The notes under the pieces: generated by a model | Databases searched by the model: none | Seen by the model: only the letters and a program-made list of their open reading frames with translations | What the model was told of the DNA's origin: nothing | Made by a program: the position numbers and the translations under genes | Shown here: positions 10,344 to 54,583 of the stretch, in pieces | How positions within the stretch are numbered: the first letter of the stretch is position 1 | How the letters are laid out: the number at the start of each line of letters is the position of its first letter | Source: Patescibacteria group bacterium | Lineage (GTDB): Bacteria; Patescibacteriota; Patescibacteriia; JAXHNJ01 | Length of the DNA stretch: 64,000 nucleotides | Direction of reading: 5' to 3' | NCBI GenBank assembly: GCA_034520665.1 | Contig: JAXHNJ010000002.1 | Coordinates: 416,660-480,659, forward strand

Positions 10344-10350
10344 AAAACAT

Positions 10351-36575: not shown

Positions 36576-36874
36576 AACAATCCTCCTTTTAGGGATTTAA
36601 AAAGTGAAAAGAACTACATACTTAAAAAAACCAATACATTTTTCTAAACCACCCTCATTAAGCTATATTATCTTGTCAAAGGACAAGTTTTTGCTTTTTG
36701 GTTTTGTATTGATTAAAAACTAATTATATTCTTTTTTTAGCTCCTAAGTATATATTTTATGCCCAAGACAGTCAAGGGTATGATTAGTGCATAAAATGTG
36801 TATAAATCAATTATTTTCTTAAAATTGCCATAATAAGCAATATAGTCTATAATTAGAGCATTAAACAAAAATAT

Positions 36875-37536: not shown

Positions 37537-39344
37537 AAAAGAAAAAAAAGAAAAAGGCACAAAAACATTTTTATAACAAAAGATGGTGGAAATATTTGAT
37601 AGCCATCTTTTTTGGGCTAGTGCTTTTATTTTTTGCCTATACTTATATTTATTATATTTATTACGCTGATAAATTTTATCCTGGCTTTGAAATAGGTAAT
37701 TATAGTCTTGAAGGTCAGAGTTATAACCAAGTCTTATCAAGGCTTAATCAATTTGAAGAAGTAATTAATGAACAAGGCTTAAAATATAAGTACAATGAAA
37801 AAGAGATAGCGGTCAGGCCCAATATTTCTTCCACGGAAGATCCTGATTTTGTTTATAAAATAATTGATTTTGAGAATAAAAAAACAGTAAATGAGGTCTA
37901 CGAATTCGCCCGTGGAGAAAATTATCTTGATAATTTTCTAAAGCATTTAGCGGCCTTTTTTAACGGCCTTGAGATAAAAATAGCTTATGAATTAAATGAA
38001 GAGGAGTTAATTAGTATTTTAGAAAATAATTTCTCTGAATTTGAAACACCGGCCCAAAAGGCACAGCTTAAATTAAATGAAGAGGATAGTTTTGAAAAAA
38101 TACCGGAAAAGGAAGGAGATATTTTTTCTTACTCTTTATTAGTAAAGCAAACCAAAAAATCTATAGAAAATCTTAAAAATGAAATTCACTATCTTTATTT
38201 AAAAAAAGATACCCCGGATATAAAGCTTAACCAGACTGACCAGGCTTTTAATGATATAGAAGATGTTTTGAATTTATTCCCGGCTAGTTTAACTTATCAA
38301 GATAAAAAATGGGAAATAAAAAAAGAGGATGTAAAAAAGTATCTTGATTTTGATATTAGAGAAGATCAAGTGAAATTAGGTTTAAAAAAAGAGTTTAAAA
38401 ACTATCTAAAAGATAATATCACTGATGAGGTTAATCAGGCCGTCAAAGAAGGGAAATTTAACATGGAAAACGGTAAGGTGTCAGAATTTCAGGCCAGTCA
38501 AAAGGGTTTATCTTTAAATAATGAAAAAACTATTGAAAAAATTGAAAAGGAAATAATTGACAGTCAAAAAAGGCAGACGGCTCTAGTGGTTGATATTACC
38601 CGGCCGAAAGTAACTACACAATCTATTAATGATTTAGGTATTACTGAATTAGTGGGAAGAGGCCAGTCAAACTTTGCTGGCAGTCCCCGTAATCGCCGCC
38701 ATAATATTGCTGTCGGGGCTGATACTCTCCATGGTCTTTTAATTAAGCCCGATGAAGAATTTTCTTTAGTTGGGGCTTTGGGTGAAATTGACGCGGCTCA
38801 TGGTTATTTACCCGAGCTGGTCATTAAAGGCAATAAAACCGTGCCCGAATACGGCGGCGGTTTATGTCAAATTGGCACCACGGCTTTTAGAGTGGCCTTA
38901 AATACCGGTCTGCCCATTACTGAACGCCGGCCTCATTCTTACCGAGTTTCTTATTATGAACCAGCCGGCACTGACGCTACTATTTATAATCCTAGTCCGG
39001 ATTTAAAATTTATAAACGATACCGGTCATTATCTGCTTTGGCAAACTCATATTGAGGGCAATGATTTAATTTTTGAATTCTACGGCACAGATGACGGCCG
39101 GCAAGTAAAAACGACAGAACCGACTTTATCAAATTATATATCACCGCCCCCGACTAAGATTATTGAAACCGAAGACTTAAATCCCGGGACCAGAAAGTGT
39201 ACGGAAAGAGCTCACACCGGAGCCACCGCTGTTTTTTATCGGACCATTACTAAGCCAGGAGAGGAACCGGAAAAAGAAACCTGGACTTCGGTTTATCAGC
39301 CCTGGCAGGAGGTTTGTTTAATCGGAGTAGAATCAGAAGAATAG
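37533..39344 (+). CDS. VanW-domain protein with an N-terminal TM anchor.
   Basis: The C-terminal VPEYGGGLCQIGTTAFRVALNTGLPITERRPHSYRVSYY matches the VanW core. N-terminal K-rich tail plus one TM helix. Confidence 0.75.
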   Translation: MKKKKKKKAQKHFYNKRWWKYLIAIFFGLVLLFFAYTYIYYIYYADKFYPGFEIGNYSLEGQSYNQVLSRLNQFEEVINEQGLKYKYNEKEIAVRPNISSTEDPDFVYKIIDFENKKTVNEVYEFARGENYLDNFLKHLAAFFNGLEIKIAYELNEEELISILENNFSEFETPAQKAQLKLNEEDSFEKIPEKEGDIFSYSLLVKQTKKSIENLKNEIHYLYLKKDTPDIKLNQTDQAFNDIEDVLNLFPASLTYQDKKWEIKKEDVKKYLDFDIREDQVKLGLKKEFKNYLKDNITDEVNQAVKEGKFNMENGKVSEFQASQKGLSLNNEKTIEKIEKEIIDSQKRQTALVVDITRPKVTTQSINDLGITELVGRGQSNFAGSPRNRRHNIAVGADTLHGLLIKPDEEFSLVGALGEIDAAHGYLPELVIKGNKTVPEYGGGLCQIGTTAFRVALNTGLPITERRPHSYRVSYYEPAGTDATIYNPSPDLKFINDTGHYLLWQTHIEGNDLIFEFYGTDDGRQVKTTEPTLSNYISPPPTKIIETEDLNPGTRKCTERAHTGATAVFYRTITKPGEEPEKETWTSVYQPWQEVCLIGVESEE

Positions 39345-39475
39345 ACTATTTGTCATGAATTATTTATAAAATATATTGTTTATAAAAGTAGCTGTCAGTC
39401 GAGACTGACAGCTACGCCTTTAATTTAAATATTTTTTTAAAAAAACAGATGTTATATTTATTTTTAAAAATAAAA

Positions 39476-39499
39476 ACTCCCTCGAAATTTCGAGGGAGT
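39476..39499 (-). terminator. Rho-independent terminator of the minus-strand gene 39516..39851.
   Basis: Perfect palindrome ACTCCCTCGAAA/TTTCGAGGGAGT. The minus-strand reading is followed by TTTTTATTTTT. Confidence 0.6.
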
Positions 39500-39515
39500 G
39501 GCGAGAAGCAAGAAA

Positions 39516-39851
39516 TTAAAAAATTTTATACACCTCGTTTAAATCAAGCCATAGCTCATAAAGAGCTTTTTTTATTGACTTAAAAGGTGTTCTTAAGGCC
39601 GGATACTGATGCAGAAGATACCAAGGGCAAACCTTTCTTTGAGCCAGCCTTATCTGATAAATCCCAGAGACCAAGAGTAAAATAGCCAATAAGCCACCGG
39701 GAAAGGTGATTGTTAGGCCATCAAACCCGTTACTGGCTATATAATTTATAGCCAAGTAGACTCCGAAGAAAAGAAAAATAATTCCTCGAATAATACGTCT
39801 CTGATTTACTTGGTGCACCCTCTCTTTAGTATAAGCCATAGGCAGTCTCAT
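39516..39851 (-). CDS. Small hypothetical membrane protein.
   Basis: 111 aa with two or three hydrophobic helices. Carries its own terminator. Confidence 0.4.
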   Translation of the reverse strand: MRLPMAYTKERVHQVNQRRIIRGIIFLFFGVYLAINYIASNGFDGLTITFPGGLLAILLLVSGIYQIRLAQRKVCPWYLLHQYPALRTPFKSIKKALYELWLDLNEVYKIF

Positions 39852-40192
39852 AATTGACTCCTTTCTGCGATTTTATCTTAAAAGAACTTAATTGATTATA
39901 CCTAATAAAAAAGTGATAATCAATATACTGTGGACAAGAAGACTGATTTAAGGAAAAAGTAAGCTAAAAGCCCACTTAGCCATAAAACAGCCCCCATGCT
40001 TGTCGTGTCCACAGAATACTGTTTACCACTCGTTTTCTCCCCTCCTGAATTATTTGTTAAAAAACTTTAAATTTATAACTTTTCAGCCGAACAGGACATA
40101 TTATCATAGATTTAAAACCTTGTCAAGAGGGGCTTAAAATGATAGAATTTTAATACTTAAAGAATTTAAAAATTATTAATCCAAATATAAAA

Positions 40193-41221
40193 ATGACTAT
40201 TAATCAGATTTATAAATTAGCGGTAGACCTAGGTATTAAAAATGATCCGCGTGGCCAAAAAACAGTTAAAAAAAGATTAAAAAAAGTTAGACAAGAATAC
40301 AATAAACTCTCAGAAGAAAAAAAGAAGTGCTTTGATCAGGAGAAATTAAAGAATCCTTATTCTGATACCCGCATTTATTACGGAGATCCCAGAAAAAAAG
40401 TAAAAAGAGTTTTAACCGGCATTGATATGGAGACGTCGGAATTATTATTAGCTGAGAAAATTTCCCAAGAAAAACCAATTGATTTAATAATCAGTCATCA
40501 CCCTCTGGGCATTGGCTTAGCCGCTTTGCACGAGGTAATGAAAATGCAGGCCGAAATACTTTCTTTATACGGCGTGCCCATATCTTCGGCTCAAGGCCTG
40601 CTTCATATTAGAATTGATGAAGTTTCGCGCAGTGTGAACTCGGCCAATCATAACCGCACTATTGATGCCGCTCGTATACTTGATTTACCTATTATGTCTA
40701 CTCACACAGCGGCTGATAATATGGTCGCTAATTTTCTTTCCAAATATATTAAAAGAAACAAAAAAAATATAGAAACTGTTGAGGATTTACTAAAGTCTTT
40801 GGAAAAATTACCGGAATATAAAGAGGCTATGAAAAATAAATGCGGCCCCAGACTTTTTGCCGGTAAAAAAAGTAACTTTGCCGGTAAGATTGCCTTGACT
40901 GAATTAACCGGCGGCACTGAAGGCTCCAAAGACATCTATGAAAAAATGGCTCAGGCTGGCATTGATACCGTGGTTGGCATGCACATGTCTGAAGAGCATA
41001 AAAAAGCGGCCGAAAAAAGCCATCTTAACGTAGTTATTGCCGGTCATATTTCTTCGGACTCGATTGGTATGAATTTATTTTTAGACGAGCTGGAGAAAAA
41101 GGGCGTGGAAGTAATACCCTGCTCCGGATTAATTCGAGTAAAGCGTTTTAAAAAGAAAAAATCCCATAAAAGAAAAACTAATAAGAAAAAAAGTAGCCAA
41201 AAAAGAGGAAAAAAGAAGTAA
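40193..41221 (+). CDS. Nif3-family dinuclear metal-centre protein (YqfO/YbgI-like) with a K-rich C-terminal tail.
   Basis: DLIISHHPLGIG and MSTHTAADN (HHP...THT metal ligands). The C-terminus is KKKKSHKRKTNKKKSSQKRGKKK. Confidence 0.7.
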   Translation: MTINQIYKLAVDLGIKNDPRGQKTVKKRLKKVRQEYNKLSEEKKKCFDQEKLKNPYSDTRIYYGDPRKKVKRVLTGIDMETSELLLAEKISQEKPIDLIISHHPLGIGLAALHEVMKMQAEILSLYGVPISSAQGLLHIRIDEVSRSVNSANHNRTIDAARILDLPIMSTHTAADNMVANFLSKYIKRNKKNIETVEDLLKSLEKLPEYKEAMKNKCGPRLFAGKKSNFAGKIALTELTGGTEGSKDIYEKMAQAGIDTVVGMHMSEEHKKAAEKSHLNVVIAGHISSDSIGMNLFLDELEKKGVEVIPCSGLIRVKRFKKKKSHKRKTNKKKSSQKRGKKK

Positions 41222-41246
41222 TTAATTTTTTGATTTTTAAAATATT

Positions 41247-42269
41247 ATGCCCAAAGAAAGAATAATTAATGCTGATGAAAAAGGTGAAGACCGCACTCTT
41301 GATTTAACTTTGCGTCCGCATGATATTAAGGAATTTGTCGGTCAAGAAAAGGTTAAAGAAAACCTTAATATTTTTGTTAGTGCAGCCAAGCAAAGAAAAG
41401 AACCGATTGAACACGTCTTGTTGCATGGAGCTCCGGGTTTAGGTAAAACCACCTTAGCTCATATTATCGCTCGTGAAATGGGCACTAATTTAAAAGTGAC
41501 TTCTGGTCCGGCTATTGAAAAAGCGGGGGACTTGGCGGCTATCTTAACTAATTTGGGTGACGGAGACGTGCTTTTTATTGATGAGATTCACCGGCTTAAC
41601 CGCGTTATTGAAGAAGTTTTATACCCGGCCATGGAGGATTATTTTATTGATATTGTGGTGGGCAAGGGGCCTTCAGCGCGCACGCTTAAACTTGATTTGC
41701 CCAAGTTTACTTTAGTCGGAGCCACTACCCGATTAAGTTTATTATCTTCACCTTTACGGGACCGTTTTGGTATGACTTATCGCCTGGGTTTTTATTCAGA
41801 CGAAGAGATTGGTCAAATAATCAAGCGTTCAGCCAAGATTTTAGGCGTTACTTTAGATAAAGAATCTTCCGAACTGCTAGCTAAAAGAGCTCGCAAAACC
41901 CCGCGCGTGGCTAATCGTCTTTTAAAACGGGTCCGAGATTATGCTCAGGTAAAATCTGACGGGAAAATTACCCAGTCATTATGTGAATCGGCTTTAGGTA
42001 TGCTGGATATTGATGAAATGGGACTGGATGAAACTGATCGTAAAATTTTAGAAATAATTATTGAAAAATTTAAAGGTGGGCCGGTTGGTTTAAACGCCAT
42101 TGCGGCCGCTATACAGGAAGAAATGGAAACCCTGGAGGATGTTTATGAGCCCTATTTAATGCAAATTGGCTATTTAGTACGCACACCGCGAGGTCGATCA
42201 GTGACCGAAGAAGCTTATAAGCATTTAAGTAAAAGACCGCCGAAAGATATTCAGAAGAAGTTGGTATGA
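41247..42269 (+). CDS. ruvB: Holliday junction ATP-dependent DNA helicase RuvB.
   Basis: [19 protein letters not shown]...[20 protein letters not shown] and a winged-helix C-terminal domain. Confidence 0.95.
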
Positions 42270-42384
42270 TGTTTTTAGATATTGAGTGAGCAAGATATTG
42301 AGATATTTATGATTGAAATTTGACTAAAAAATAATTTATAAATAAAACATAGTCTAGACAAAAAGGTGGCCGGAAAGGAAAAAT

Positions 42385-42690
42385 ATGACTGGCGCTTTTT
42401 TTGATTTACGAATTTGGCAAAAAGCACAAAAATTAGCCAAAGAAATTTATAAAATAACAAAGCTATTTTCCAAAGATGAACTTTTTGGATTAACTAATCA
42501 ACTTAGAAGGTCGGCCGTTTCAGTGGCGGCTAATATTGCGGAAAGCCAGGGAAGATATTATTATAGGGATAAAATCAGAGTTCTTTATATTAGTCGTGGT
42601 GAAATATATGAAATACAAAGTCATTTAAGAATTACTTCAAGCCAAAATTATTTACCAAATAAAAAATTAGAAAATCCTTTTATTGCCTAG
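42385..42690 (+). CDS. Four-helix-bundle protein (23S rRNA intervening-sequence protein family).
   Basis: WQKAQKLAKEIYKIT...ELFGLTNQLRRSAVSVAANIAESQGR...EIYEIQSHL matches this family's pattern. Confidence 0.65.
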   Translation: MTGAFFDLRIWQKAQKLAKEIYKITKLFSKDELFGLTNQLRRSAVSVAANIAESQGRYYYRDKIRVLYISRGEIYEIQSHLRITSSQNYLPNKKLENPFIA

Positions 42691-42693
42691 TTT

Positions 42694-42727
42694 ACCGGAC
42701 CCCTGCTTAGGCGGGGGTTTTTTCTTT
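42694..42727 (+). terminator. Rho-independent terminator.
   Basis: ACCCCTGC-ttag-GCGGGGG followed by TTTTTT. Confidence 0.6.
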
Positions 42728-42753
42728 GAGTAAAATAATTTATAATAAAATCT

Positions 42754-43824
42754 ATGAAACTCTCAAAATTTGACTATCATTTACCCAAAGAATTAATCGC
42801 TCAAAAGCCAGTGCGCCCGCGGCATAATTCCCGGCTAATGGTTTTGGATAAAAAAAAGAAGACAATTAAGCATGATTATTTTTATAACTTACCAAAATAT
42901 TTAAAGACTGGTGATGTTTTAGTCTTTAATGACTCAAAGGTTTTTCCGGCTCGTTTGCCGGCTCGCAAGATCACCGGCGGTAAGCTGGAAGTTTTTCTGC
43001 TACGCCAAGAAAAGAATCTTTGGCAGTGTTTAATTGGCGGTAAGGTGAGAAGGGAAGGCATGGAGTTTGTTGTGGGAGGTAGGGATATAGGGACAATAGA
43101 CAAGGGACATAGGGACAAGAAGAAAGAAAAAATATTAAGCGGTAAAATCGTTAAAAAATTAGGAAACGGAATTTGGCTGGTTAAGTTTAATAAAAAAGAA
43201 AATGAATTTTGGCATTTAGTCAATCAATACGGCCAAGCACCAACCCCGCCTTATATTAAAAAGAAATCAAACTTAAAAGAATACCAAACCGCTTTTGCCA
43301 AAAACAAAGGCTCGGTAGCCGCTCCGACGGCCGGTTTTCATTTTAGCCAAAAATTATTAAACCATTTAAAAAAGAAAGGAATTAAAACAGAATTCATAAC
43401 TTTACATGTGGGTTATGGTACTTTTCAGCCGGTTAAAGAAGAAAACATTGAAAAACACAAAATGCATTTTGAATACTTAGAAGTTAAAAAATCAGTAATA
43501 AAACGTTTGTTGAAATATAAAAAAGAAAATAGAAGAATTATTCCTGTGGGCACTACTTCTGGCCGGGTTCTTGAAGGAGTAGTTTCCCATTATAAAAAAA
43601 CGCCAAAAAAAGATTTTTTTGGCAAAACAAACTTATTTATTTACCCGGGCTATAAATTTAAGTTTATTAACGGATTAATTACTAATTTTCACTTACCTAA
43701 GAGTACTCTTTTAATGCTAGTCAGTGCTTGGGCCGGGTTGCCTTTTATTAAAAAAGCTTATCAAAAAGCGATTAAAAAGAAATACCGCTTTTATTCTTTT
43801 GGGGATGGCATGCTGATTGATTAA
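42754..43824 (+). CDS. queA: S-adenosylmethionine:tRNA ribosyltransferase-isomerase.
   Basis: MKLSKFDYHLPKELIAQKPVRPR...SRLMVL is the canonical QueA N-terminus. C-terminal YSFGDGMLID. Confidence 0.9.
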   Translation: MKLSKFDYHLPKELIAQKPVRPRHNSRLMVLDKKKKTIKHDYFYNLPKYLKTGDVLVFNDSKVFPARLPARKITGGKLEVFLLRQEKNLWQCLIGGKVRREGMEFVVGGRDIGTIDKGHRDKKKEKILSGKIVKKLGNGIWLVKFNKKENEFWHLVNQYGQAPTPPYIKKKSNLKEYQTAFAKNKGSVAAPTAGFHFSQKLLNHLKKKGIKTEFITLHVGYGTFQPVKEENIEKHKMHFEYLEVKKSVIKRLLKYKKENRRIIPVGTTSGRVLEGVVSHYKKTPKKDFFGKTNLFIYPGYKFKFINGLITNFHLPKSTLLMLVSAWAGLPFIKKAYQKAIKKKYRFYSFGDGMLID

Positions 43825-43826
43825 AT
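43780..43826 (+). repeat. Direct repeat copy 1 (the native queA 3' terminus), flanking the purL segment.
   Basis: aaataccgcttttattcttttggggatggcatgctgattgattaaat. It recurs at 47915-47961 with 2 mismatches. Confidence 0.8.
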
Positions 43827-43837
43827 AAAAAAGACCC

Positions 43838-43866
43838 GTGGTAATGAATTTATCACGGGTCAGATT
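43838..43866. terminator. Hairpin shared by the convergent queA and purL genes.
   Basis: GACCCGTG-gtaatgaatttat-CACGGGTC, an 8-bp stem between the two stop codons. Confidence 0.5.
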
Positions 43867-43882
43867 AAAGTAAAAAAAGTGT

Positions 43883-46800
43883 TTAACTGCAATCACACCA
43901 TTTTCTAGCATTTTGGAACATCTGGAGCCAGGGAGATGCCTTAAGTTTATATCTCCAGTCTTTGGGCATCCAGGGCCATTGCCACTTAAGAAAAACGCGT
44001 TCTGGATGCGGCATCATGGCCAGGTGCCGACCGTCTGGTGAACAGAGAGCCGTGATTCCCTTGGGAGAGCCATTAGGATTTAAGGGATAACTTTCTGTCG
44101 CTCTTCCTGTTTCATCGGTATATACTAATGGTGTCAAGTTTTGGAAAACTATATCTTTTAGGATTTCTGAATCAGGACAATGAAGTTGTCCCTCACCATG
44201 AGCGACCCAAATTCCTAAAACAGAATTAGCCATGTCGCCCAACATAATGGAAGGACTTGGCATAATTTTAGTAGTTACCCAACGGGATTCAAAGAGCCCC
44301 GAAGTGTTTTGGATGAAACGAGGTTGTTTATCTTCATCAATGCCTTTCCAAGGTACCCAACCAAGTAGAGCCATCAACTGACAGCCATTACAGACACCAA
44401 GCGAGAAAGTGTCTTCACGCCGGTAAAAACGTTCAAACATTTTTCGCAGTTTGGGATTGAAAAGGATGATTCCGGCCCAACCCTTTGCGCTATCCAGTAC
44501 GTCAGCGTAGGAGAAGCCACCGACAAATACTATGCCACGACATGAATCAAGATCATATTCACCGTTCAGGAGATCAGTCATGGTCACATCAACCGGAGTG
44601 AATCCAGCTGCGAAAAATGCTGAAATCATTTCTCGATCACCATTACTACCTTCTTCGCGGATGATAGCCACTTTGGGCTTGCTAGTTCGGTTCAGAACCT
44701 CCGGAGGAGTTGCTTGCGGATTAAAGGATAGCGAGTAAACTGGACTAATACGCGTTCGGTGCCTTTTAGCCTGTTGCCAGGCCAGATCGGGATCAATTTG
44801 GTGGAGCTCTAGCTGATCACTAGTAGATTCCCACCATTCAAGCAGTTTGCTCGTTGATTCACCAAAGACTAACTCTTCTTGGTGATAAATGAAAACCATA
44901 TGTTCCTGGCAGGAATTTCCCAAAGTTAGACACGGTGAAACACCATACTCTTTAAGAATACTGGCAACTTCAAATTCGTTTTTAGGCAGAACCTCAAGTA
45001 CTAGACCCAGTTCTTCCGAGAACAGGTATTCAAGGGTAGTGACGTTGTCAGGCACCTTCACTTTTATCCCACAGTTGCCGGACATGGACATCTCCACCAG
45101 TGTGGTAATAAGCCCGCCATCACTGATGTCGTGGCCAGCCAAGACGAGATCGTGGTCGATCATTGCCTGAATAGCTAAAAAGACATTTTTCAGAAGTTCG
45201 GGATTATCGACATCCGGAGATTCGTTACCAATCTGCTTGTTGATCTGAGCTAGAGCCGAGCCACCCAGACGGTGCTTACCCGGCGCCATAGGAATATAAA
45301 GCAGAGAGCTATTCCCTGGTTGTTTGATATCCGGAGTTAAGATTTGAGTGATGTCAGGCATAGTAGCGTAGGCCGAAATAACCAACTGCCCTGGTGCTTT
45401 GACAGTTTCGTCGCCTACCTTAGCAGCCATGGACAAACTATCCTTACCGCCATCCACGGCGATACCTAATGCAATCATCAGATCTCGCATAGCTAGGGCA
45501 GCATCATGCAGTTTAGCCCCTTCACCGGGAAGCTTGGCCGCCCACATCCAGTTAGCTGAACACTTGATGTGTTTCAAGTCACTGATGCGAGCGAAGACCA
45601 TATTGGTCAAGGCTTCAGCTACGGCCATCCTAGCGCCAGCAGATGAATTGACTAACATCTTGATCGGTTGTTCACCGATAGATATGGCACTGCCTGTCAG
45701 TCCGAAATGACTCTGAGCCACTGCGGATACATCAGATACTGGTAGTTGCAGCGGACCACAGCATTGTTGTCTGGCGATTAAACCAGTGACACTTCGGTCT
45801 ACCTTTCGAACTAGATAACCTTTAGAGCATACTGATGGTAACCGGAAGACTTGACGTAAAGCCTCTTTAACGCTTATGTCAGGTAAATCTAGCGGAGCCA
45901 GTTCTTCTGGCACCTCATCAATCTTAAAACTCTTCTGCGGCATATCACAGAGAATCTTACCGAGATCAAGGTCTACAGGATAGGAGTCGTCCTGGTTATC
46001 ATAAACTACGATACGACCATTACCAGTGATATTTCCCAACACCTCACAGTTGATCTTTTCGCGTCTGCAGATGGCCTTAAATTTTTCTAATTGATTTGGA
46101 TAAATCAGGAAAGCGTCGCGCTCCTGGTATTCAGCGCCCCAAATCTCGAGAACAGACATAGTGGCATCTCCAACTTGGATTTGCCGTATGTCTATTCTAC
46201 CGCCAGCCGGTTCCACTAATTCCGTCAGAACATTACACGGTCCGCCAGCTCCTTGGTCATGGATGCTCAAAATAGGATTATTACTCCCCATCTCAATACA
46301 GGCACGAATGACACGATTAACTTTCTGTTCCATTTCAGCGTCTCCGCGTTGAACAGCATTGAAGTCCAGCTCAGCCGTGTTAGCCCCTTGAATCATACTG
46401 GAGGCAGAACCACCTCCCATACCAATGCGATAGGCAGGACCTCCAACCTGGATAATTACCATGCCGGGTTCAGGAGTTTTCTTTTTGGTGTGTTGATTAT
46501 CAATCTGACCGACACCACCAGTGAACATGATCGGCTTAATCCATTCGCGTCGCTCACCATTGGGAAGCCTCAGACCGAATGTTCGAACAAAACCCTGTAT
46601 AATAGGTTCGCCGAACTTGTTGCCGTAGTCGGAAGCACCATTGCTTTCCTCAATCATGATTTTGAGGGGAGTAGCCAGGTTGCCCGGATAAGCAAAATCT
46701 GGGTTTTCACCTTTAATGTGCAGAGCACTAGGCATACCGTTGTCAGCAATCAGGAGATTACCAGTGCAATAACCAGCTGTACCAGCAACCACCAGTCCGC

Positions 46801-47737
46801 CTTGGCCCACTCCTTGTCCGTCACGGATACGCCCACCAGTTCCGGTTTCAGCACCAGGAAAAGGAGCTACTCCGCTGGGGAAGTTGTGTGTTTCGGCATT
46901 GAAGGTGATATGATACTCACGTTGCTGGAGAGCAAAAGGTGAACAGATACCAGAATTTTTTGGGATCAAGGTTTGGATCTTGTATCCTGTGATAGCACTG
47001 GCATTATCACTGAAAGCAATCAGGCTGTTGGCCGAGTTGATCTGAAGCGGAGTCTGCACGATCTGGAGTAGCGTCTCGGGAAGTACCTGTCCGTTCCGGA
47101 CAAGTTTTCCCTTGAAGAACCAGTGACGGGAATGCTCACTGTTAGCTTGACCAAGCTGGAAACATTCCACATCTGTGGGATCGCGACCGATCTCGCTGAC
47201 GAAGAGGTTGTGATAGAAGTTGAGGTCCCAGTCGTCCATTCCTAAGCCCATTTTCTGGTTGATACGCCGAAGCGCTTTTACCCCCTCGTTCATTAGAGGA
47301 ATAATACGTACGGCTTTCGGTTGGATGCCGGTAGCGAAAGTTTTCAGGGGGCGAGGATAGTGACATTCAGTCATGCGATCATGATGATTAGCTAAAAAAG
47401 TATCTATATTATCTTCCTGTGGTAAGACATGTCGTCTGGAAATTTCCAAGCGAGTTATTTTATTTAGTCCACAAGCATGACAAATTGCTACGGCATTAGT
47501 TGAAAATGCAGTGGCGAAATTCATGCGTGGTCCAACTTCAATAACAGATTTTTTTTTGGACTGAAACAAGGAATCTTTACTAAAACAATTAGGATCAAAA
47601 GTTTCAGCCAGGAGCCAAGTTAATATATTTAACTCCTGAGTAGTTAATGGTTCGGATGTTTCTACATTAAAACAGTATTCAAATGTAGAACTAGCTTCAC
47701 GGTAAAAATGTAAAACTTTATTAGTATTCATCTCCAA
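43883..47737 (-). CDS. purL: Phosphoribosylformylglycinamidine (FGAM) synthase, long single-chain PurL form with fused N-terminal, synthetase and glutaminase domains.
   Basis: 1284 aa with QANSEHSRHWFF, ETHNFPSGVAPFPGAETGTGGRIRD, EWIKPIMFTGGVGQI, glutaminase LGVCNGCQLMALLGW and a C-terminal MMPHPER motif. Markedly GC-richer than its flanks. The track start at 47737 is a TTG; the ATG at 47731, with AAGGAGG 8 nt upstream, is the more likely start. Confidence 0.9.
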   Translation of the reverse strand: MEMNTNKVLHFYREASSTFEYCFNVETSEPLTTQELNILTWLLAETFDPNCFSKDSLFQSKKKSVIEVGPRMNFATAFSTNAVAICHACGLNKITRLEISRRHVLPQEDNIDTFLANHHDRMTECHYPRPLKTFATGIQPKAVRIIPLMNEGVKALRRINQKMGLGMDDWDLNFYHNLFVSEIGRDPTDVECFQLGQANSEHSRHWFFKGKLVRNGQVLPETLLQIVQTPLQINSANSLIAFSDNASAITGYKIQTLIPKNSGICSPFALQQREYHITFNAETHNFPSGVAPFPGAETGTGGRIRDGQGVGQGGLVVAGTAGYCTGNLLIADNGMPSALHIKGENPDFAYPGNLATPLKIMIEESNGASDYGNKFGEPIIQGFVRTFGLRLPNGERREWIKPIMFTGGVGQIDNQHTKKKTPEPGMVIIQVGGPAYRIGMGGGSASSMIQGANTAELDFNAVQRGDAEMEQKVNRVIRACIEMGSNNPILSIHDQGAGGPCNVLTELVEPAGGRIDIRQIQVGDATMSVLEIWGAEYQERDAFLIYPNQLEKFKAICRREKINCEVLGNITGNGRIVVYDNQDDSYPVDLDLGKILCDMPQKSFKIDEVPEELAPLDLPDISVKEALRQVFRLPSVCSKGYLVRKVDRSVTGLIARQQCCGPLQLPVSDVSAVAQSHFGLTGSAISIGEQPIKMLVNSSAGARMAVAEALTNMVFARISDLKHIKCSANWMWAAKLPGEGAKLHDAALAMRDLMIALGIAVDGGKDSLSMAAKVGDETVKAPGQLVISAYATMPDITQILTPDIKQPGNSSLLYIPMAPGKHRLGGSALAQINKQIGNESPDVDNPELLKNVFLAIQAMIDHDLVLAGHDISDGGLITTLVEMSMSGNCGIKVKVPDNVTTLEYLFSEELGLVLEVLPKNEFEVASILKEYGVSPCLTLGNSCQEHMVFIYHQEELVFGESTSKLLEWWESTSDQLELHQIDPDLAWQQAKRHRTRISPVYSLSFNPQATPPEVLNRTSKPKVAIIREEGSNGDREMISAFFAAGFTPVDVTMTDLLNGEYDLDSCRGIVFVGGFSYADVLDSAKGWAGIILFNPKLRKMFERFYRREDTFSLGVCNGCQLMALLGWVPWKGIDEDKQPRFIQNTSGLFESRWVTTKIMPSPSIMLGDMANSVLGIWVAHGEGQLHCPDSEILKDIVFQNLTPLVYTDETGRATESYPLNPNGSPKGITALCSPDGRHLAMMPHPERVFLKWQWPWMPKDWRYKLKASPWLQMFQNARKWCDCS

Positions 47738-47914
47738 AACCTCCTTTTAGCTTCATTACAAGCTATTTTACAATTAAACTAATATTGATTTAGTTAAACA
47801 CTATTGTCAAAGGACACAATTTAATTAATAAAAAATAATCCCTCCTATGGATTAGTTTTTTGTATAGAAAGCTTACTATAATACTATATAATTATCAAGA
47901 AAGTTTGATTTTTA

Positions 47915-47961
47915 AAATACCGCTTTTATTCTTTTGAGGATGGCATGTTGATTGATTAAAT
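47915..47961 (+). repeat. Direct repeat copy 2 (orphan duplicate of the queA 3' terminus).
   Basis: aaataccgcttttattcttttgaggatggcatgttgattgattaaat. 45 of 47 positions are identical to 43780-43826. It encodes ...YRFYSFEDGMLID* with no gene body. Confidence 0.8.
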
Positions 47962-47962
47962 C

Positions 47963-48165
47963 TTGACAAAAATTAATGGATATTATAAGCTGTCTAAGCT
48001 CATTAAAGACAATATTTGATTTCCTTCCCACCCAATCCCTATCTCTTTCTAGAGATGAACCTTTTATCTATTCTAGGAAATCAGTGTCCCTTCGGGGACA
48101 TAAGCCTTTTGGCTTGATGTTGTCTTTGGCCGGGAGAATTTTGAAACCCTCCCGGCTTTTTATTT
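47963..48165 (+). ncRNA. Candidate small RNA: a promoter-like element, about 170 nt of structured sequence and a strong intrinsic terminator.
   Basis: TTGACA (47963-47968) with a 15-nt spacer to TATAAG. Hairpins GTCCC-ttcg-GGGAC and GCCGGGAG-aattttgaaacc-CTCCCGGC, then TTTTTATTT (48129-48165). No plausible CDS; the 63-aa ORF is low-complexity. The neighbouring genes are on the opposite strand. Confidence 0.3.
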
Positions 48166-48234
48166 AAAGTTTTTTAATAAAAAAGACATAGGCTAAAAAA
48201 GTCTGGGCCTACTTAGAATTTATAAAATTAATTA

Positions 48235-50928
48235 TTAATTAAAACCAGCTACATTAATTCCACCAGAAAAACCGGGAAAAAGATAAAAATTACTGATAAA
48301 TGATCCGTCCATTTCAAATATTTTTACTTCCGGCTTTAAACCAGATTTTACAGCGGTAATAATTTCATAAGTACCGTCATTATCATAATCACCTGTGGAT
48401 AGATTAAGGCCACCGCGAAAATCTGAAGAATAAACAAAGAATTGATCCTCTAAATCACCCTGCTCATTAAATATTCTGACATGAGGCCCGCCATTAGATA
48501 AGGGAGCCGTAATTATTTCTTCAGAGCCGTCTGAGTCTAAATCGCCGGTGGTCAAATTTACGCCACCGCGAAAATTTTCAGCGTAAGCCATAAACCATTC
48601 TTTAACATTTCCCTGATAATCAAATACTTTGACATGGGGCCCGCCGCTTGAACCAGCTCCGGTAATTATTTCAGAGATACCATCTCCGTCTGTATCCCCG
48701 CAGGCAATTTGAACCCCACCACGAAAATTTTCCGCGTAAGCAAAGAACTGTGATTTTAAATGGCCTTGATAATCAAAAACTCTTATATGCGGTCCGCCTC
48801 CGGGACCAGCGGCCGTAATAATTTCTGTTTGCCCGTCACCATCAACATCGCCGGCGGCCAGATTAACCCCGCCGCGAAATGAATTAAGATAAGCCATAAA
48901 CCAGGAGATTTCCTGAGCCCGACTGTTTAAAACTCTGACATGAGGACCACCACCTGACCCAGGAGCGGTAATGATTTCTTCAGAGCCGTCATTGTTAATA
49001 TCAGCCGCTATAATATTAACCCCGCCTTGCAAGGCTGAAGTATAAGGTAAAAAAGCGCCGGTTAATTGATTATCAGAGTCGTAGCCTTGTACTAAAGGCA
49101 AATCCCCTTTCTCTTTACCAATAAGAATATTATTTTTTTTATAGGAAAATACAGATCGTTGAATAGTGGTGTTATGTCCGGCACGATCTTTCAGAATAAA
49201 AGTTAGGTTATTTTTACCTTTACTTAAAGAAATATTTTCCGAATAATTAGCTGAATCAGTAGAAAAAGACTGATTATTAACACTAAAGTTTAAAACACCG
49301 GAAGTTTGGTCAGTAATTTGACCGGAAGAGATTAAAAAACTGCCATTAACTTTCTGATTATTAAAGGGGCGACTTAGACTTAATGAGGGAGCCGTAAGAT
49401 CAACATAAATATTAGTACTTTTTGTAATTTCTGAATTATTAATATTATCTTTAGCGTAGTATTCAATTAAATGTTTGCCTTCACTTAAAGAAAAAGATGA
49501 GGTATAAGTTTGCCAAGAGCCGGAATTAAGACGGTAATATATATTTTTAATGCCGTTTTCGTCACTGGCAGTTAAAGAAATTCTTGGCTGGCTGACATAA
49601 TAACCGTTTTCGCCGTCTGGCTCAGAAGGCGAAACATTTAAACTGGTAGTTGGTTTACCCGAGTCACTTTGAGCTAAAGCCAAAGCTGCTTCAATATCTA
49701 AAAGGCCATAGCCGTAGCTAGTATCATAGCCAGAAGCGCCTAAATCCTGAGTTGAAGAAGTCAGTAGGGCTTTAATTTGATTTGAGCTTGAGCCATAGGA
49801 GAATAAAAGCCCGGCTGCGGCGCTAATATGAGGCACGGCCTGCGAAGTGCCCGAAGCAGAGACCAGATTGTGATCTGAACAATTATTGTTACAGTATTCC
49901 GCTAAAATATTTGTGCCCGGGGCTACTAAATCTATACCCTGTCCATAGTTGGAAAAAGAAGCCAAGGTATTACTGCTATTACTGGCTCCGATCGCGATAA
50001 CTTCGGGATAGGCCGCTGGATAATAAATACGGTTAACACCGTCATTGCCGGTTGAGCTAAGCAAAATAACTTCATTATTCTGGGCGTATTTAACGGCATC
50101 ATAGAGTGTTTCTGAATAAAATTCTTCTTCACCAGTGCCAATACTCATATTAATAATATCAGCTCCGTGATTTACGGCCCATTCAATACCAGAAGCGACA
50201 TGAATAATACTGCCTTCACCATTACCATCCATCACCTTTACTGGCATAATGGAAACATTAAAAGCAATGCCAGCAATGCCTTTAGCGTTATTAGTGGAAG
50301 CGGCAATTATTTCCGTGATATTAGTACCATGACCATTATCATCATTAGCATGATTATCGTTATTAACAAAGTCATAGCCGGAAACAAAATTGGTATTAGC
50401 TAAGTCCGGAGCCTGAACATAAGTCTCATAATTTTCATAAGAAACCCCGGTATCTAAAACAGCGATTTTAACCGAAGAATCGCCGCCGTAGGGGTTAGAA
50501 TCAGAATCATAATCCCAAGCCTCAGGTGTATTGATTTTTGATAAATTCCATTGCTCACTGTAATAAGTGTCGTTAGGAGAAAAAAGATGAGTAGAAAGAT
50601 GATACTTAGGCTCAGCGTATTCAATATATAAATTATTTTGATATTGTCTGGCCAGGGCTTTAATATCTTTATTATTGGAAAAATTAATTTCATAAGCTCC
50701 ATAAAGAAGGGAGTTTTTATTATGACTCAAAGCACTAATAGTAGTAACTTGGTTATTTTTGTTAAGCTTGTCCAGGGAATAAAGTTTATTTAGATTAAGA
50801 TACTGAAATTCTTTTTTTACTTTTATTATTATTGAATCGGCTTTAATTTCTTGGGCCCGAGCTCCATTAACCAAAAAAGCTGTTATTAGACAGCTCATTA
50901 TAAAAATGTAAGTCAGATATTTTTTCAT
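48235..50928 (-). CDS. Secreted subtilisin-like serine protease (peptidase S8) with a C-terminal FG-GAP/VCBS beta-propeller repeat domain.
   Basis: Signal peptide. Catalytic triad contexts VAVLDTGV, HGTNITEII and SGTSQAVPHISAAAGLL. Five or more repeats of GDxDxDGxxEIITAxGxGGGPHVxVF with about a 55-aa period. Confidence 0.8.
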   Translation of the reverse strand: MKKYLTYIFIMSCLITAFLVNGARAQEIKADSIIIKVKKEFQYLNLNKLYSLDKLNKNNQVTTISALSHNKNSLLYGAYEINFSNNKDIKALARQYQNNLYIEYAEPKYHLSTHLFSPNDTYYSEQWNLSKINTPEAWDYDSDSNPYGGDSSVKIAVLDTGVSYENYETYVQAPDLANTNFVSGYDFVNNDNHANDDNGHGTNITEIIAASTNNAKGIAGIAFNVSIMPVKVMDGNGEGSIIHVASGIEWAVNHGADIINMSIGTGEEEFYSETLYDAVKYAQNNEVILLSSTGNDGVNRIYYPAAYPEVIAIGASNSSNTLASFSNYGQGIDLVAPGTNILAEYCNNNCSDHNLVSASGTSQAVPHISAAAGLLFSYGSSSNQIKALLTSSTQDLGASGYDTSYGYGLLDIEAALALAQSDSGKPTTSLNVSPSEPDGENGYYVSQPRISLTASDENGIKNIYYRLNSGSWQTYTSSFSLSEGKHLIEYYAKDNINNSEITKSTNIYVDLTAPSLSLSRPFNNQKVNGSFLISSGQITDQTSGVLNFSVNNQSFSTDSANYSENISLSKGKNNLTFILKDRAGHNTTIQRSVFSYKKNNILIGKEKGDLPLVQGYDSDNQLTGAFLPYTSALQGGVNIIAADINNDGSEEIITAPGSGGGPHVRVLNSRAQEISWFMAYLNSFRGGVNLAAGDVDGDGQTEIITAAGPGGGPHIRVFDYQGHLKSQFFAYAENFRGGVQIACGDTDGDGISEIITGAGSSGGPHVKVFDYQGNVKEWFMAYAENFRGGVNLTTGDLDSDGSEEIITAPLSNGGPHVRIFNEQGDLEDQFFVYSSDFRGGLNLSTGDYDNDGTYEIITAVKSGLKPEVKIFEMDGSFISNFYLFPGFSGGINVAGFN

Positions 50929-50969
50929 GCGATAAAATATAATAATCTACCCAATTATTATATCAAAGA

Positions 50970-52871
50970 TTAGTAAATTTTAGTAATCTCAACGTTAGTA
51001 TAGTAATATTTTAAGATTTGGTTCCACGTGGAACCGTTTTTAGCCATACCGCGAGCACCAGTGCCGGACAGGCCCACGCCATGACCCCAAAGCTCCATAC
51101 CTTCACAGTGAGGATCATCTTTTGAAACTAGCCACTCTTTTTCGCCACGCCAAACCTCTGACCAGCTGCGAGTACGACCGTCTGAGCGGGAAAAATAAGG
51201 AGTGACCACAATTTCATTATTATAAGTGACGGCCTGGCCGGCCGTAGCTTGAGTGGCCTCGGTAATGCCGGGTGAGCGAATTTCCATATTGTACCCGCGA
51301 TAAACCTGATCATTGGCGGAATCATCCAAAGTAAAATTATCGTCCCGATGTTTGGTATTGACTTCAAGGTTATACAAAGCATAAGTGCGAGCGGCTGTGA
51401 CTAAGGCCTTTAAATATTCACTATGCTCAGTGCCGGAAGCTTCACCTAGTCCCCTTAAATAACTTTCTAAAGGCAATTCATTAATCACCCAAAGTTTTCG
51501 GGAAGCCGTAGAATAACGCACCTCAATATCACCTCGGAATTTATTGTCATTAATAGAAGAGTCCCAAGCTGGGCGGTTTTCAAAAGAGGTAATTTCCATG
51601 ATAATCTCATTATTTTTAGGCACAAATATGGGATAAAGAGCCGTTGATTGATTTAAATGAGGAGTTTTTATAATGTATTGGCCCTTAACAAATTCAACTG
51701 AAGAACTAGTCCCATTTATTTCATCCAATACCTGTCCTTGACTGTTTTTTAAGTAATAAGCGCCGTTGGCCTTAATAGTTACTTTTTCTGAAGTATTATA
51801 AAGTCCAATGCGGATATTTGGCTCTTCTGATAGTGTTTCTACGGCTTGAATTTGATTAGGATCAAAAACCGTAATTGGGATGGTTATCTCTCCGCCGGTT
51901 ATCCATTCCAAGTTTTCGGCTACTAAACCAAAATGTTCGGTAAATTGTCCGGTTTCATTTGGAGCTTGTAAAGCAAATTTAAAACGACCGACTTGCCCGG
52001 GTTTAACCTCATTATTCATTAAGCGGCTGGGCCGGTAATAATATTCAGACCAAAACTCATGCTGAAAAGCACTTTCTCTTCCGGCTGGCTTGGCTACATT
52101 CAAGGCAATAAAATTTTCACCCGTATTGTACCAAGTTTTAGTGCCCCGGTTTTTAAAATCAACCCAGAAAGTCAGAGATTCACCTTTTTCAATTTCTATT
52201 TTTGAAGCCTTGGCCCCAACTAACTCAGCCTGGTATTCCGGTACCACTTCAATGGTTATATCAAATTTCCCGCCAGTAATCCACTCCAAATTTTCGGCTA
52301 CCAAACCAAAACTTTCTGAATAATTACCCGGTTTTTCCGGAGCTTTTAAAGCAAAAGTAAAACGACCGACTTCTCCGGGCTTAACTTCACTGTTAGAAAG
52401 CCGTCCGGGCCGATAATAATATTCAGACCAAAATTCATGCTGAAAAAGGCTCTGCCGGCCGGCTGGATCCGATACATTCAAAGCAATAAAATTTTCTCCT
52501 GAATTGTGCCAAGTTTTAGAGCCAGTGTTTTTGAAATCAACCCAGAAAGTTAAAGACTTGCCCGGATAAATTCTAATAGAATCATAAGCTTTATTAATTA
52601 ATTCGGCTTGATAGTCTTTGCTAGTAGTTTTTAAACCTAAAACCTGGCCATTAGTTAAATAACCTTTTCTAAAATTATAACTAGCCGATTGTAAGGAGTT
52701 AGGTTTTTCTTCCTGGGCTTGGACTTCATTTTTATTAATAATTTTTTCTTCAATTAGACGCAAGCCAAAAGCGCTTAAACTAATAATGACAATCATAAAA
52801 ACCGCCGGAAATAATATTTCCCTGAACTTTATACGGCCGTATTTAATTTTTGTTTTGCTTTTCATAACCAA
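50970..52871 (-). CDS. SpoIID/LytB-domain protein (peptidoglycan lytic) with an N-terminal TM anchor and two roughly 115-aa repeat domains.
   Basis: The C-terminal LESYLRGLGEASGTEHSEYLKALVTAARTYAL...TPYFSRSDGRTRS is a SpoIID/LytB signature. Two near-identical internal repeats: LTFWVDFKN[TR]G[ST]KTW[HY]N[ST]GENFIALNV...FQHEFWSEYYYRP. Confidence 0.7.
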   Translation of the reverse strand: MVMKSKTKIKYGRIKFREILFPAVFMIVIISLSAFGLRLIEEKIINKNEVQAQEEKPNSLQSASYNFRKGYLTNGQVLGLKTTSKDYQAELINKAYDSIRIYPGKSLTFWVDFKNTGSKTWHNSGENFIALNVSDPAGRQSLFQHEFWSEYYYRPGRLSNSEVKPGEVGRFTFALKAPEKPGNYSESFGLVAENLEWITGGKFDITIEVVPEYQAELVGAKASKIEIEKGESLTFWVDFKNRGTKTWYNTGENFIALNVAKPAGRESAFQHEFWSEYYYRPSRLMNNEVKPGQVGRFKFALQAPNETGQFTEHFGLVAENLEWITGGEITIPITVFDPNQIQAVETLSEEPNIRIGLYNTSEKVTIKANGAYYLKNSQGQVLDEINGTSSSVEFVKGQYIIKTPHLNQSTALYPIFVPKNNEIIMEITSFENRPAWDSSINDNKFRGDIEVRYSTASRKLWVINELPLESYLRGLGEASGTEHSEYLKALVTAARTYALYNLEVNTKHRDDNFTLDDSANDQVYRGYNMEIRSPGITEATQATAGQAVTYNNEIVVTPYFSRSDGRTRSWSEVWRGEKEWLVSKDDPHCEGMELWGHGVGLSGTGARGMAKNGSTWNQILKYYYTNVEITKIY

Positions 52872-52929
52872 TAAAAAAAATGGCCAAAGCTTTTTGGCAC
52901 ACTTTATATTTATTCACCTAAGTGTTGGC

Positions 52930-52965
52930 TCTTTATTTCTAATCTAATTGTAGCATAGATTTTAC
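52930..52965 (-). promoter_or_regulatory. Sigma70-like promoter for the SpoIID-like gene.
   Basis: The minus strand reads TTGACT-17 nt-TACAAT (ttgactttttgtaaaatctatgctacaat). The hairpin GTCTCCC-tta-GGGAGAC lies just upstream. Confidence 0.45.
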
Positions 52966-53104
52966 AAAAAGTCAACCCCTCGTCTCCCTAAGGGAGACTT
53001 CGGCTTACCAGCAAGCTGATGTTAAAAAAGCAACTGTTAAATAATTTAAAATATTTTTTGTTACTTTTGAAACAATATAATTACATTGACCAGGGACCTT
53101 TAAA

Positions 53105-54583
53105 ATGATAATATCAAGAAGTAAAATTAATTTTTTTATACTGGAAAATATGTCATTAACTGGCCGAGTGGCCCGCAATACAATTATACAAGTGATCGGC
53201 AAAATACTGGGTACAGTTTTGGGTTTGATCGTAGTTGGCTTGTTAACTCGCTATTTAGGCACCGCTGGATATGGTCACTACACTACCATTATTGCTTATC
53301 TTGGTTTTTTCTCAGTCATTGCTGATCTAGGGCTGTATTTAATTGTGGTGCGGGAGATTTCTAAAAAAGAGGCCGACCCTCAAAAAGTTCTGGGCAATGT
53401 TTTTAGTATCCGTATAATTTTTGCCGGAGTTATTTTGGCTCTGGCTGCTTTTATAGCTTTCTTTTTGAATTATCCTCTGATTGTTAAACAGGGTATATTA
53501 CTAGGGACACTTTCCTTTCTCTTTGTCGCCTTAAATCAGGTTATGGTTGGTATTTTCCAAAAAAAATTGGCCATGTATAAAGTGGCTCTAGGTGAATTAA
53601 TTGGTCGGATAGTGCTACTGGCATTAGTGGCCTGGTTTATTTCTCTTAATTACAGTCTATTATTTATTATATTGGCGGTAGTTTGCGGCAGCTTAGCCAA
53701 TTTTATAGTAGTTTATATTTTGGCTCAAAAATATGTTAAGATTAAGTTTCGTTTTAATTTTGAATACTGGAAATATATTTTAAAGGAAACCTGGCCTTTA
53801 GCTATTTCTGTAGTTTTAAATTTATTATATTTTCGCCTGGATACGGTTTTTTTATCTTTGATAAAACCAGCTTCAGATGTTGGTCTTTATGGCGCTTGTT
53901 ATAAAATTTTAGAAGTTTTGGTAACTTTACCTAATTTGTTTGTTGGCTTGGTTTTGCCGATATTAAGTTATTGGGCTTTTTTAAATCGTGATAAGTTTAT
54001 CGAAATATTTCGCCGTTCCTTTGATTTTATTATTTTAATCACCATTCCTTTGGTGACTGGTGGTTTTATTTTAGCCCGGCCATTAATTATTCTTATTGGT
54101 GGCCAAGAATTCGCCGCCGCGGCTCCGATATTTCAAATATTAATTTTTGGTGTTGGTTTTCTCTTTTTGGGCAGTCTTTCCGGGCATACTATTGTGGCTA
54201 TAAATAAACAAAGAAAAATGGTTTGGGGGTATTTATCAGTGGCTGTTTTGGGCATAATATTATATTTAACTTTAATCCCCTTTCTTTCTTATTATGGCGC
54301 CGCCATTGGCACGGTCGTGACTGAGTTTAGTATTATGATTATCGGTTATTATATTATTATAAAAACTATGCGCTTTAAACTACCCTGGCGAGTTTTTGTA
54401 AAATCTCTGGCGGCCAGTTTTGCTATGGCTGGCTTTCTTTACGCGGCCCGGGATTTTAATTTATTTATTCAGCTAACTGTTGGTTTAGTCATTTACTTGG
54501 CTGTTTCTTATTTATTAAAAAGTTTTACCAGAAAAGAGGTTTTGGAGGTAATAAAAATTGGAAAGGAAAAGAAAAATGGCTAA
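53105..54583 (+). CDS. wzx: Polysaccharide/O-unit flippase (Wzx, MOP superfamily).
   Basis: 12-14 TM helices, 492 aa, with the characteristic N-terminal basic region and loop pattern of Wzx/RfbX. Confidence 0.65.
   Translation: MIISRSKINFFILENMSLTGRVARNTIIQVIGKILGTVLGLIVVGLLTRYLGTAGYGHYTTIIAYLGFFSVIADLGLYLIVVREISKKEADPQKVLGNVFSIRIIFAGVILALAAFIAFFLNYPLIVKQGILLGTLSFLFVALNQVMVGIFQKKLAMYKVALGELIGRIVLLALVAWFISLNYSLLFIILAVVCGSLANFIVVYILAQKYVKIKFRFNFEYWKYILKETWPLAISVVLNLLYFRLDTVFLSLIKPASDVGLYGACYKILEVLVTLPNLFVGLVLPILSYWAFLNRDKFIEIFRRSFDFIILITIPLVTGGFILARPLIILIGGQEFAAAAPIFQILIFGVGFLFLGSLSGHTIVAINKQRKMVWGYLSVAVLGIILYLTLIPFLSYYGAAIGTVVTEFSIMIIGYYIIIKTMRFKLPWRVFVKSLAASFAMAGFLYAARDFNLFIQLTVGLVIYLAVSYLLKSFTRKEVLEVIKIGKEKKNG

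Follow-up and report, generated by a model that had tools for sequence, protein, structure and literature searches.

A purL transcription unit between two 47-bp copies of the queA terminus in a Patescibacteria genome

Patescibacteria (also known as the candidate phyla radiation, CPR) have very small genomes and are generally seen as organisms without most of nucleotide biosynthesis. How, then, did the gene purL come to stand in one of them directly behind queA, and why is it bracketed there by two copies of the last nucleotides of queA? We considered this question in a window of 64,000 nt (positions 416,660 to 480,659 of contig JAXHNJ010000002.1, assembly GCA_034520665.1; the window is this whole stretch, and positions are counted from its first letter), which is part of a 698-kb contig of a Patescibacteria metagenome-assembled genome (MAG). 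An earlier note, made from the letters of this DNA, had described a purL-bearing segment of about 4.1 kb inserted at the 3' end of queA. We conclude, with high confidence, that the locus records a real, recent and lineage-specific insertion with a 47-bp target duplication, made after the split from the lineage of the closest relative that we could retrieve, a contig of the JGI metagenome 3300022700 (hereafter L038).

The 47 nt at the end of queA (copy 1, AAATACCGCTTTTATTCTTTTGGGGATGGCATGCTGATTGATTAAAT) extend 2 nt past the stop codon and, as the earlier note had read, recur about 4.1 kb downstream (copy 2) with two substitutions, G23A and C34T, the copies being identical at 45 of 47 positions. 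They are the only matches in the 64 kb at three or fewer mismatches, where the expected number is 0.00 (0 of 100 dinucleotide shuffles). The queA gene that carries copy 1 encodes a protein recognised over its full length by the NCBIfam equivalog NF001140 (425 bits, cut-off 324) and also by TIGR00113 (392 bits, cut-off 267). That no body of queA precedes copy 2, a further claim of the same note, could be confirmed: Smith-Waterman comparison of 47738-47914 with the 300 nt before copy 1 gave a score of 18, below the shuffle mean of 21.8, and blastx upstream of and at copy 2 matched to QueA just the 14 residues that the repeat encodes. A longer stretch of decayed queA homology before copy 2, hinted at by MAFFT, was rejected, since neither Smith-Waterman scores against shuffles nor blastx gave anything beyond the 47 bp. 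Copy 1 retains a GGG codon for a glycine that is invariant in all eight relatives examined (8/8), which in copy 2 has become GAG (Glu); the second change of copy 2 is CTG to TTG, and an in-frame TGA lies 9 nt upstream of it. Judged by its letters, copy 2 is a relic that has lost its translation, and the Gly to Glu change is one expected of such a relic.

What lies between the two copies is, by its predicted signals, one complete transcription unit with promoter, Shine-Dalgarno sequence, open reading frame (ORF) and intrinsic terminator, apart from an AT-rich right end of 104 nt (Table 1). The convergent hairpin, the purL gene on the opposite strand and its promoter and ribosome-binding site, which the earlier note had listed, were all located in this insert. 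PurL is recognised over its full length by TIGR01735 (1570 bits, cut-off 1123) and comprises five Pfam domains, and its glutaminase motifs GVCNGCQ and MPHPER (HPE) are conserved with respect to human PFAS (9n9w). The terminator folds at -14.7 kcal/mol (z -4.4), with the hairpin followed by UUUUUUAUUU, GGAGG stands 8 nt ahead of the purL ATG, and the promoter-like site consists of TTGACA and AATATT separated by an 18-nt spacer. The 104-nt right end matched nothing in any of the loci fetched; on the minus strand it begins with an open frame of 21 nt (47914-47894), closed by a TGA. Pfam scans found no integrase and no transposase in the insert or among the 46 ORFs of the 64-kb window, and the ends of the insert scored 17 for terminal inverted repeats, level with the shuffle mean of 16.2, in agreement with the claim that neither mobility genes nor inverted ends are visible here. 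Other pur genes are also missing from the insert and from the window.

Table 1. Features of the queA-purL locus, with positions in the 64,000-nt window
Feature	Position	Strand	Remarks
queA, 356 aa, intact	42754..43824	+	Pfam PF02547, 3.8e-123; last 45 nt within repeat copy 1
Direct repeat copy 1, attL-like	43780..43826	+	functional 3' end of queA, including the TAA stop codon (43822-43824) and 2 nt
Inserted block, 4,088 bp	43827..47914	.	absent from the same site in L038, L045, L046 and L040
purL intrinsic terminator	43827..43861	-	hairpin 43833-43861; U-tract 43827-43832 abuts copy 1
purL, large single-chain phosphoribosylformylglycinamidine (FGAM) synthase, 1282 aa	43883..47731	-	ATG at 47731; alternative start TTG at 47737
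purL expression signals	47740..47810	-	GGAGG 47740-47744; -10 AATATT 47781-47786; -35 TTGACA 47805-47810
AT-rich right end of the insert, 104 nt	47811..47914	.	A-run/hairpin/T-run 47836-47854
Direct repeat copy 2, attR-like	47915..47961	+	displaced, non-coding queA terminus, still joined to the native downstream neighbour
Small RNA (sRNA) gene, native neighbour	47963..48172	+	-35 TTGACA 47963-47968; structured RNA from ~47990; terminator 48129-48161
S8 peptidase gene	48235..50928	-	conserved right-hand anchor of the locus in relatives

The earlier note had proposed a search of related genomes for an empty site in which queA stands directly before the promoter and sRNA region. In a set of species-representative genomes, the closest QueA reached 58% identity and purL lay within 10 kb of queA in none of the 36 loci returned; closer relatives came from a large protein database, and their contigs were then compared with the window. 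The closest of these, L038 (RuvB 97.6%, NIF3 91-93% and S8 peptidase 83.5% identical, with a synonymous divergence, dS, of about 0.8-1.0), has the empty site: its queA is followed by a 17-nt spacer, a TTGACA promoter, a homologous structured sRNA, a second sRNA-like unit, the S8 peptidase and SpoIID, with no purL. Two Logan contigs, L046 (QueA 71%) and L045 (QueA 74%), both carry tandem promoter/sRNA/terminator units after queA, followed in L046 by the S8 peptidase and in L045 by the end of the contig, and L040 (QueA 73%) carries three unrelated genes and then the S8 peptidase; there is no purL at this site in any of the three. Using blastn, we found 47915-48161 of the window to be colinear with 6402-6662 of L038, that is, with its queA end and sRNA, which identifies copy 2 as the original queA terminus on its native neighbour. 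To judge from these loci, the gap between queA and the S8 peptidase is a variable spot, with purL present there only in the lineage of the window.

The phylogeny of the loci, ((window, L038), L039, (L040, L045, L046, L047)), taken together with the empty sites, is accounted for if purL was inserted once, in the lineage of the window. From the window to L038, dS is ~0.9 (0.8-1.0 being the range in the flanking genes) and the two copies of the repeat differ at 2 of 47 positions (4%), which argues for a recent event. Had the duplication been older than the split of the window and L038, copy 2 would be expected to have changed by about half of dS (0.4-0.5 per site); such a clock is crude, yet the discrepancy is wide. 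The C34T difference is not polarisable, as T stands at this position in L038 and C in the other relatives.

Where purL may have come from was approached through its composition and its relatives. Its GC content (46.2%) and its GC content at third codon positions (GC3, 42.6%) are the highest among the 46 ORFs of the window, the next ORF having a GC3 of 41.4%. The block had been called compositionally foreign, and this stands as far as the rank of purL is concerned; the signal is modest, with composition z values of 2.3-2.9 within the window and a GC3 only 2.3 standard deviations above the mean. About 0.04 of the GC excess of purL is typical for purL of any genome. In GC, purL exceeds its surroundings by +0.12 in the window, by +0.17 and +0.13 at two loci of related purL genes (L042 and L043), and by +0.01 to +0.05 at most other purL loci. 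The PurL of the window forms a clade with P0122 (77% identity, locus L042) and P0123 (73%, locus L043, Patescibacteria MAG GCA_043812155.1), whose sister group is P0124 with P0132 (69-70%); deeper homologues are many, at ~65-68%, and some of them are labelled Actinobacteria or Hydromicrobium. This grouping with PurL proteins of Patescibacteria argues against a distant import.

The purL gene sits at three different loci in the window, L042 and L043. L043 and L047 (QueA 70%) belong to the same MAG, in which purL is thus away from queA; the 858 bp of contig that follow queA in L047 are without purL and hold a gene of 129 aa on the opposite strand. The promoter and 5' untranslated region of purL are homologous between the window and L042, and its terminator is homologous in the window, L042 and L043, which implies that purL was inherited or moved as a unit. 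The GC3 of the window purL (0.43) is intermediate between that of the host (0.31) and that of the purL genes of the relatives (0.54-0.62), as would suit a source about equally rich in AT, be it this same genome or one closely related to it. The likely source, as far as such comparisons can indicate it, is another locus or a related Patescibacterium and not a distant phylum. No closer donor or sibling emerged from protein searches, a scan of JGI metagenomes and a viral scan, in which PurL identity did not exceed 77%. Among viruses, the matches to PurL were giant-virus homologues (37-46%). Target duplications flanking purL in L042 and L043 were also looked for, but the repeats there belong to dispersed intergenic families only, and both leads were discarded.

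The surroundings of purL in L042 have features of their own. At 3990-9336 of this locus, purL comes after a PurM-like gene that is divergent (61 bits against TIGR00878, short of the cut-off), and the two genes have a GC3 of 0.54 against 0.22-0.35 in the flanking genes, forming a compositional two-gene islet. A dispersed 52-nt intergenic repeat (...GGGGTCCCTTATGGGAGGAGTT...) is found there in four copies within 9 kb (2744-2795, 9456-9507, 11201-11252 and 11776-11827), two of which bracket a block made of a methyltransferase gene, the PurM-like gene and purL.

Because the source is a metagenome-assembled genome, the arrangement might be an artefact of assembly or binning, with a chimeric join at a short repeat. 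A Logan contig assembled separately from run SRR26473340 is, however, 100% identical to the window over 35864-53824 (17,961 bp) and covers both junctions, which speaks against a chimeric assembly; it is the only Logan contig that encodes this PurL protein, and among these contigs there was thus no sign of a second purL copy. The mismatches within the 47-bp repeat leave exact runs of 22, 10 and 13 nt between the copies, all below the k of the Logan assembly, which we take to be 31, so that the repeat causes no ambiguity in the assembly graph. Moreover, QueA and PurL have consecutive NCBI protein numbers (MDZ7798861.1 and MDZ7798862.1), and the U-tract of the purL terminator and the promoter of the sRNA each adjoin a repeat copy cleanly. 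An assembly chimera is an unlikely source of what these sequences display, and we regard an artefact as extremely improbable. Hardly less improbable is an ancestral position of purL beside queA, from which the relatives would have lost purL by precise deletion between the 47-bp repeats. Recombination between direct repeats would indeed restore exactly the single-copy arrangement of L038, and the identity of PurL to that of the relative GCA_043812155.1 (73%) is close to the identities of QueA (70%) and NIF3 (72%), so that purL may be old in the family. Against this, purL would have had to be lost precisely and independently at least twice (in L038 and in the clade of L040, L045 and L046), purL lies at an unrelated locus in GCA_043812155.1, and copy 2 should differ at roughly 15-20 of the 47 positions and not at one or two. 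This scenario is therefore very unlikely in our judgement, and an insertion into the window lineage is retained.

How the DNA was joined in is a matter on which the evidence is more evenly divided. The reading that we favour, while giving it about even chances of being right, is an attachment-site (att) type of integration, in which a single Campbell-like crossover was catalysed by an enzyme supplied in trans, or by RecA acting on short homology. The chromosomal queA terminus (attB) would have recombined in a single reciprocal crossover with a matching sequence of ~47 bp on a circular purL-bearing DNA, and the two resulting repeat copies would correspond to attL and attR. The catalyst would have been encoded off the insert, as a tyrosine-type site-specific recombinase acting in trans or as one lost from a once larger element, or it would have been RecA; with a lost catalyst, the insert would be a cargo-only islet resembling the cis-mobilizable elements (CIMEs) or the microcin H47 (MccH47) island. 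The repeat is a gene terminus that ends 2 nt past the stop codon, its left, proximal copy keeps queA intact and its right, distal copy is a non-coding pseudo-terminus fused to the sRNA promoter, which is the geometry of attL and attR. With respect to L038 (G...T), there is one difference in each copy, which fits hybrid att sites and equally well one mutation per copy. The earlier suggestion of a scar of site-specific or homology-assisted integration is thus supported by the empty site and the repeat, the mechanism itself being still a matter of interpretation.

Several points weigh against such a crossover. No integrase or excisionase, nor a pseudogene of either, was found in the insert or the 64-kb window, and purL with its signals fills the insert save for 104 nt, so that a larger island would have had to decay by very tidy deletions. 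Among 15 relatives, no second element or repeated queA end was seen downstream of queA, and the idea of the queA terminus as a recurrent att site was rejected for this reason. Neither a circular form nor a donor sequence was found, the best PurL match being 77%, the 47-bp sequence has on inspection no obvious dyad symmetry of the recombinase type, and with no more than two mismatches, hybrid att sites and later mutation are not to be told apart. Integration at dif by the Xer recombinases, as in integrative mobile elements exploiting Xer (IMEX), was also considered and rejected, since the locus is ~20 kb from dnaA/dnaN/rnpA/yidC, near the origin; the chromosomal dif site lies in the terminus region.

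The main rival, possible although we hold it to be rather doubtful, is an origin that demands no homology on the incoming DNA, either by joining of a purL fragment into a 47-nt staggered break or by a template switch, similar to microhomology-mediated break-induced replication (MMBIR), that re-entered 47 nt upstream. With a break, linear purL DNA from outside, or copied from another locus, would have been ligated in, and fill-in synthesis would have duplicated the 47 bp. Such an event is supported by an insert that lacks both a recombinase gene and terminal inverted repeats and is exactly one transcription unit, and by copies that look duplicated in place, being 96% identical to each other when the queA end of L038 is only 85% identical to them; the intermediate GC3 of purL would also suit a similarly AT-rich source, possibly the same genome. 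In addition, the queA stop codon and the -35 box of the sRNA are 3 nt apart, and queA and the sRNA gene both stay intact only if an insertion duplicates the queA end or falls into this 3-nt gap, so that selection alone could explain a repeat boundary just past the stop codon. By contrast, a duplication of 47 bp is far beyond the stagger of any known transposase, no donor copy is visible in which microhomology at the junctions could be judged, and a random stagger would rarely (in roughly a few per cent of cases) place the boundary within 2 nt of the stop codon. Other insertions or deletions between the window and L038 have no flanking duplications: direct repeats were looked for, and not found, at the ORFs of 99 aa and 444 aa and at the fabD-like gene.

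The genes on either side of the insert were also compared. QueA is 82% identical between the window and L038, which is lower than its neighbours NIF3 (91-93%) and RuvB (~98%), and it contains a low-complexity, lineage-specific insertion (GGRDIGTIDKGHRDKKKEK..., about 43066-43140). A joint import of queA with purL by allele replacement was rejected, as the dS of queA (1.16) is not clearly raised over the 0.8-1.0 of its neighbours, and relaxed constraint is the more likely reading of the divergence of QueA. A gene for a FabD-like acyltransferase lies in L038 (4313-5387) between queA and a gene for a 23S-rRNA-IVP four-helix-bundle protein, in L039 directly upstream of queA, and in L046 between ruvB and queA. 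It is missing from the window (42669-42713), in which the terminator and the queA leader downstream of the gene are conserved, and this is a second lineage-specific rearrangement beside queA, without flanking repeats.

The sRNA on the other side has no match to an Rfam family, and relatives of it were found by nhmmer in L038, L046 and L045. Its fold has a z of -6.6 in the window and of -5.9 in L038, and is the same in both, with some stem positions that differ on both sides of the stem. It is an RNA of ~150-180 nt, closed by a long stem, with an internal loop rich in C (CCUUCCCACCC), three small hairpins, its own TTGACA promoter and an intrinsic terminator. In this clade, one to three diverged copies of the unit stand in tandem from queA to the S8 peptidase (window 47963-48172; L038 6463-6905; L046 8327-8975; L045 2820-3532). 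The S8 peptidase gene contains at 48353-49056 five tandem repeats of 153 nt (51 codons) with 62-71% identity, which are the FG-GAP repeats of the protein.

Further observations concern other parts of the window. The genes dnaN, dnaA, rnpA and yidC are clustered at 21544-26023, ~20 kb from the queA locus, and for this reason the window probably spans the region of the replication origin. At 35542-35911, upstream of a tRNA-Glu(UUC) gene (35835-35911), two units share the 5' portion of the tRNA (GTCGTCTAGTTTGGTCTAG) and then diverge; a 99-nt segment recurs in this region, 99% identical and spaced by 111 nt, and both ARAGORN and Rfam call only one tRNA. Such units could be repeats derived from a tRNA, or else tRNA-like genes of an odd or split type. 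Finally, a cluster of the glycogen/starch type at 6578-16200 contains paralogous pairs of GT5 starch synthases (7654-9114 and 13724-15196) and of GH57 genes (9111-10343 and 10351-11712), which account for the direct-repeat families D3 and D7.

The gain of metabolic genes by Patescibacteria is poorly documented, and the queA-purL locus is a clean, recent and delimited case of it, which overturns nothing established. The insert has exact boundaries and a 47-bp scar, a close relative has the corresponding empty site, and purL travels in this clade as a complete expression unit. The locus also supplies attL and attR as well as predicted attB and attP sequences, with which excision or a recombinase acting in trans might be sought in read data. 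As a speculation to which we attach little probability, Patescibacteria may move self-contained transcription units between loci or genomes without an element-encoded recombinase, leaving target duplications of ~47 bp. If true, reduced genomes that scavenge DNA would gain genes by a route so far undescribed, and the presence of the same purL unit in three related genomes, each time at an unrelated locus, would be its footprint.

Among known systems, transposons leave target-site duplications of ~2-15 bp and are elements with a transposase and defined ends. The purL insert is like them in the direct target duplication that flanks it, but this duplication is 47 bp long and there is neither a transposase nor a terminal inverted repeat; a transposon origin was rejected on these grounds. 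Some prophages rebuild the 3' end of the gene that they enter, and these resemble the purL locus: e14 at icd leaves a 163-bp pseudo-icd' and DLP12 at argU a 47-bp copy (PMC6379469). As in the purL locus, the terminus of the target is repeated at both ends of the insert, the proximal copy keeping the gene intact and the distal one being a pseudo-terminus. These prophages are, however, of 15-20 kb or more and have their own integrase beside the att site, whereas the purL insert is of 4.1 kb, with a single metabolic gene, no integrase or phage genes, a Patescibacterium as host and queA as target. In the literature we found no report of queA as an att site, and the sole mention of queA concerns a neighbouring tRNA-Leu.

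Two kinds of islet without a recombinase of their own also resemble the purL insert. The microcin H47 island of E. coli, which has 13 kb and several genes, is flanked by extensive imperfect direct repeats and is excised and integrated site-specifically by a recombinase that it does not encode, a strategy described as 'parasitic', its excision having been shown experimentally (PMC3191183). The purL insert is likewise a small islet with imperfect flanking direct repeats and no recombinase, although it is known from its scar alone. The streptococcal CIMEs are cargo-only elements of 1.2-13 kb, with attL and attR at the 3' end of fda, rpsI, rpmG or rplL, without genes for recombination or transfer and in many cases with metabolic cargo (PMC7563491). 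The purL insert similarly keeps att-like repeats and has no recombination or transfer genes inside. It differs in that CIMEs are deletion derivatives that stem from integrative and conjugative elements (ICEs) or integrative and mobilizable elements (IMEs), usually in tandem with one, while no ICE, IME or second element using the queA end was seen in the window or in the relatives, and this lineage of Patescibacteria is not known to have conjugative elements. A cognate recombinase or an autonomous element sharing the att site was also absent from the 64-kb window and from the region downstream of queA in the relatives. Flanked by target-derived repeats and matched by an empty site, the insert has no internal integrase and so fails the defining test of an autonomous integrative element; it is CIME-like by its architecture only. 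It looks like a familiar type of islet, one integrated at a housekeeping gene's 3' end and here stripped to one gene, and what is new is the queA target, the phylum of the host, the single cargo gene of housekeeping type and the lack of any mobility gene.

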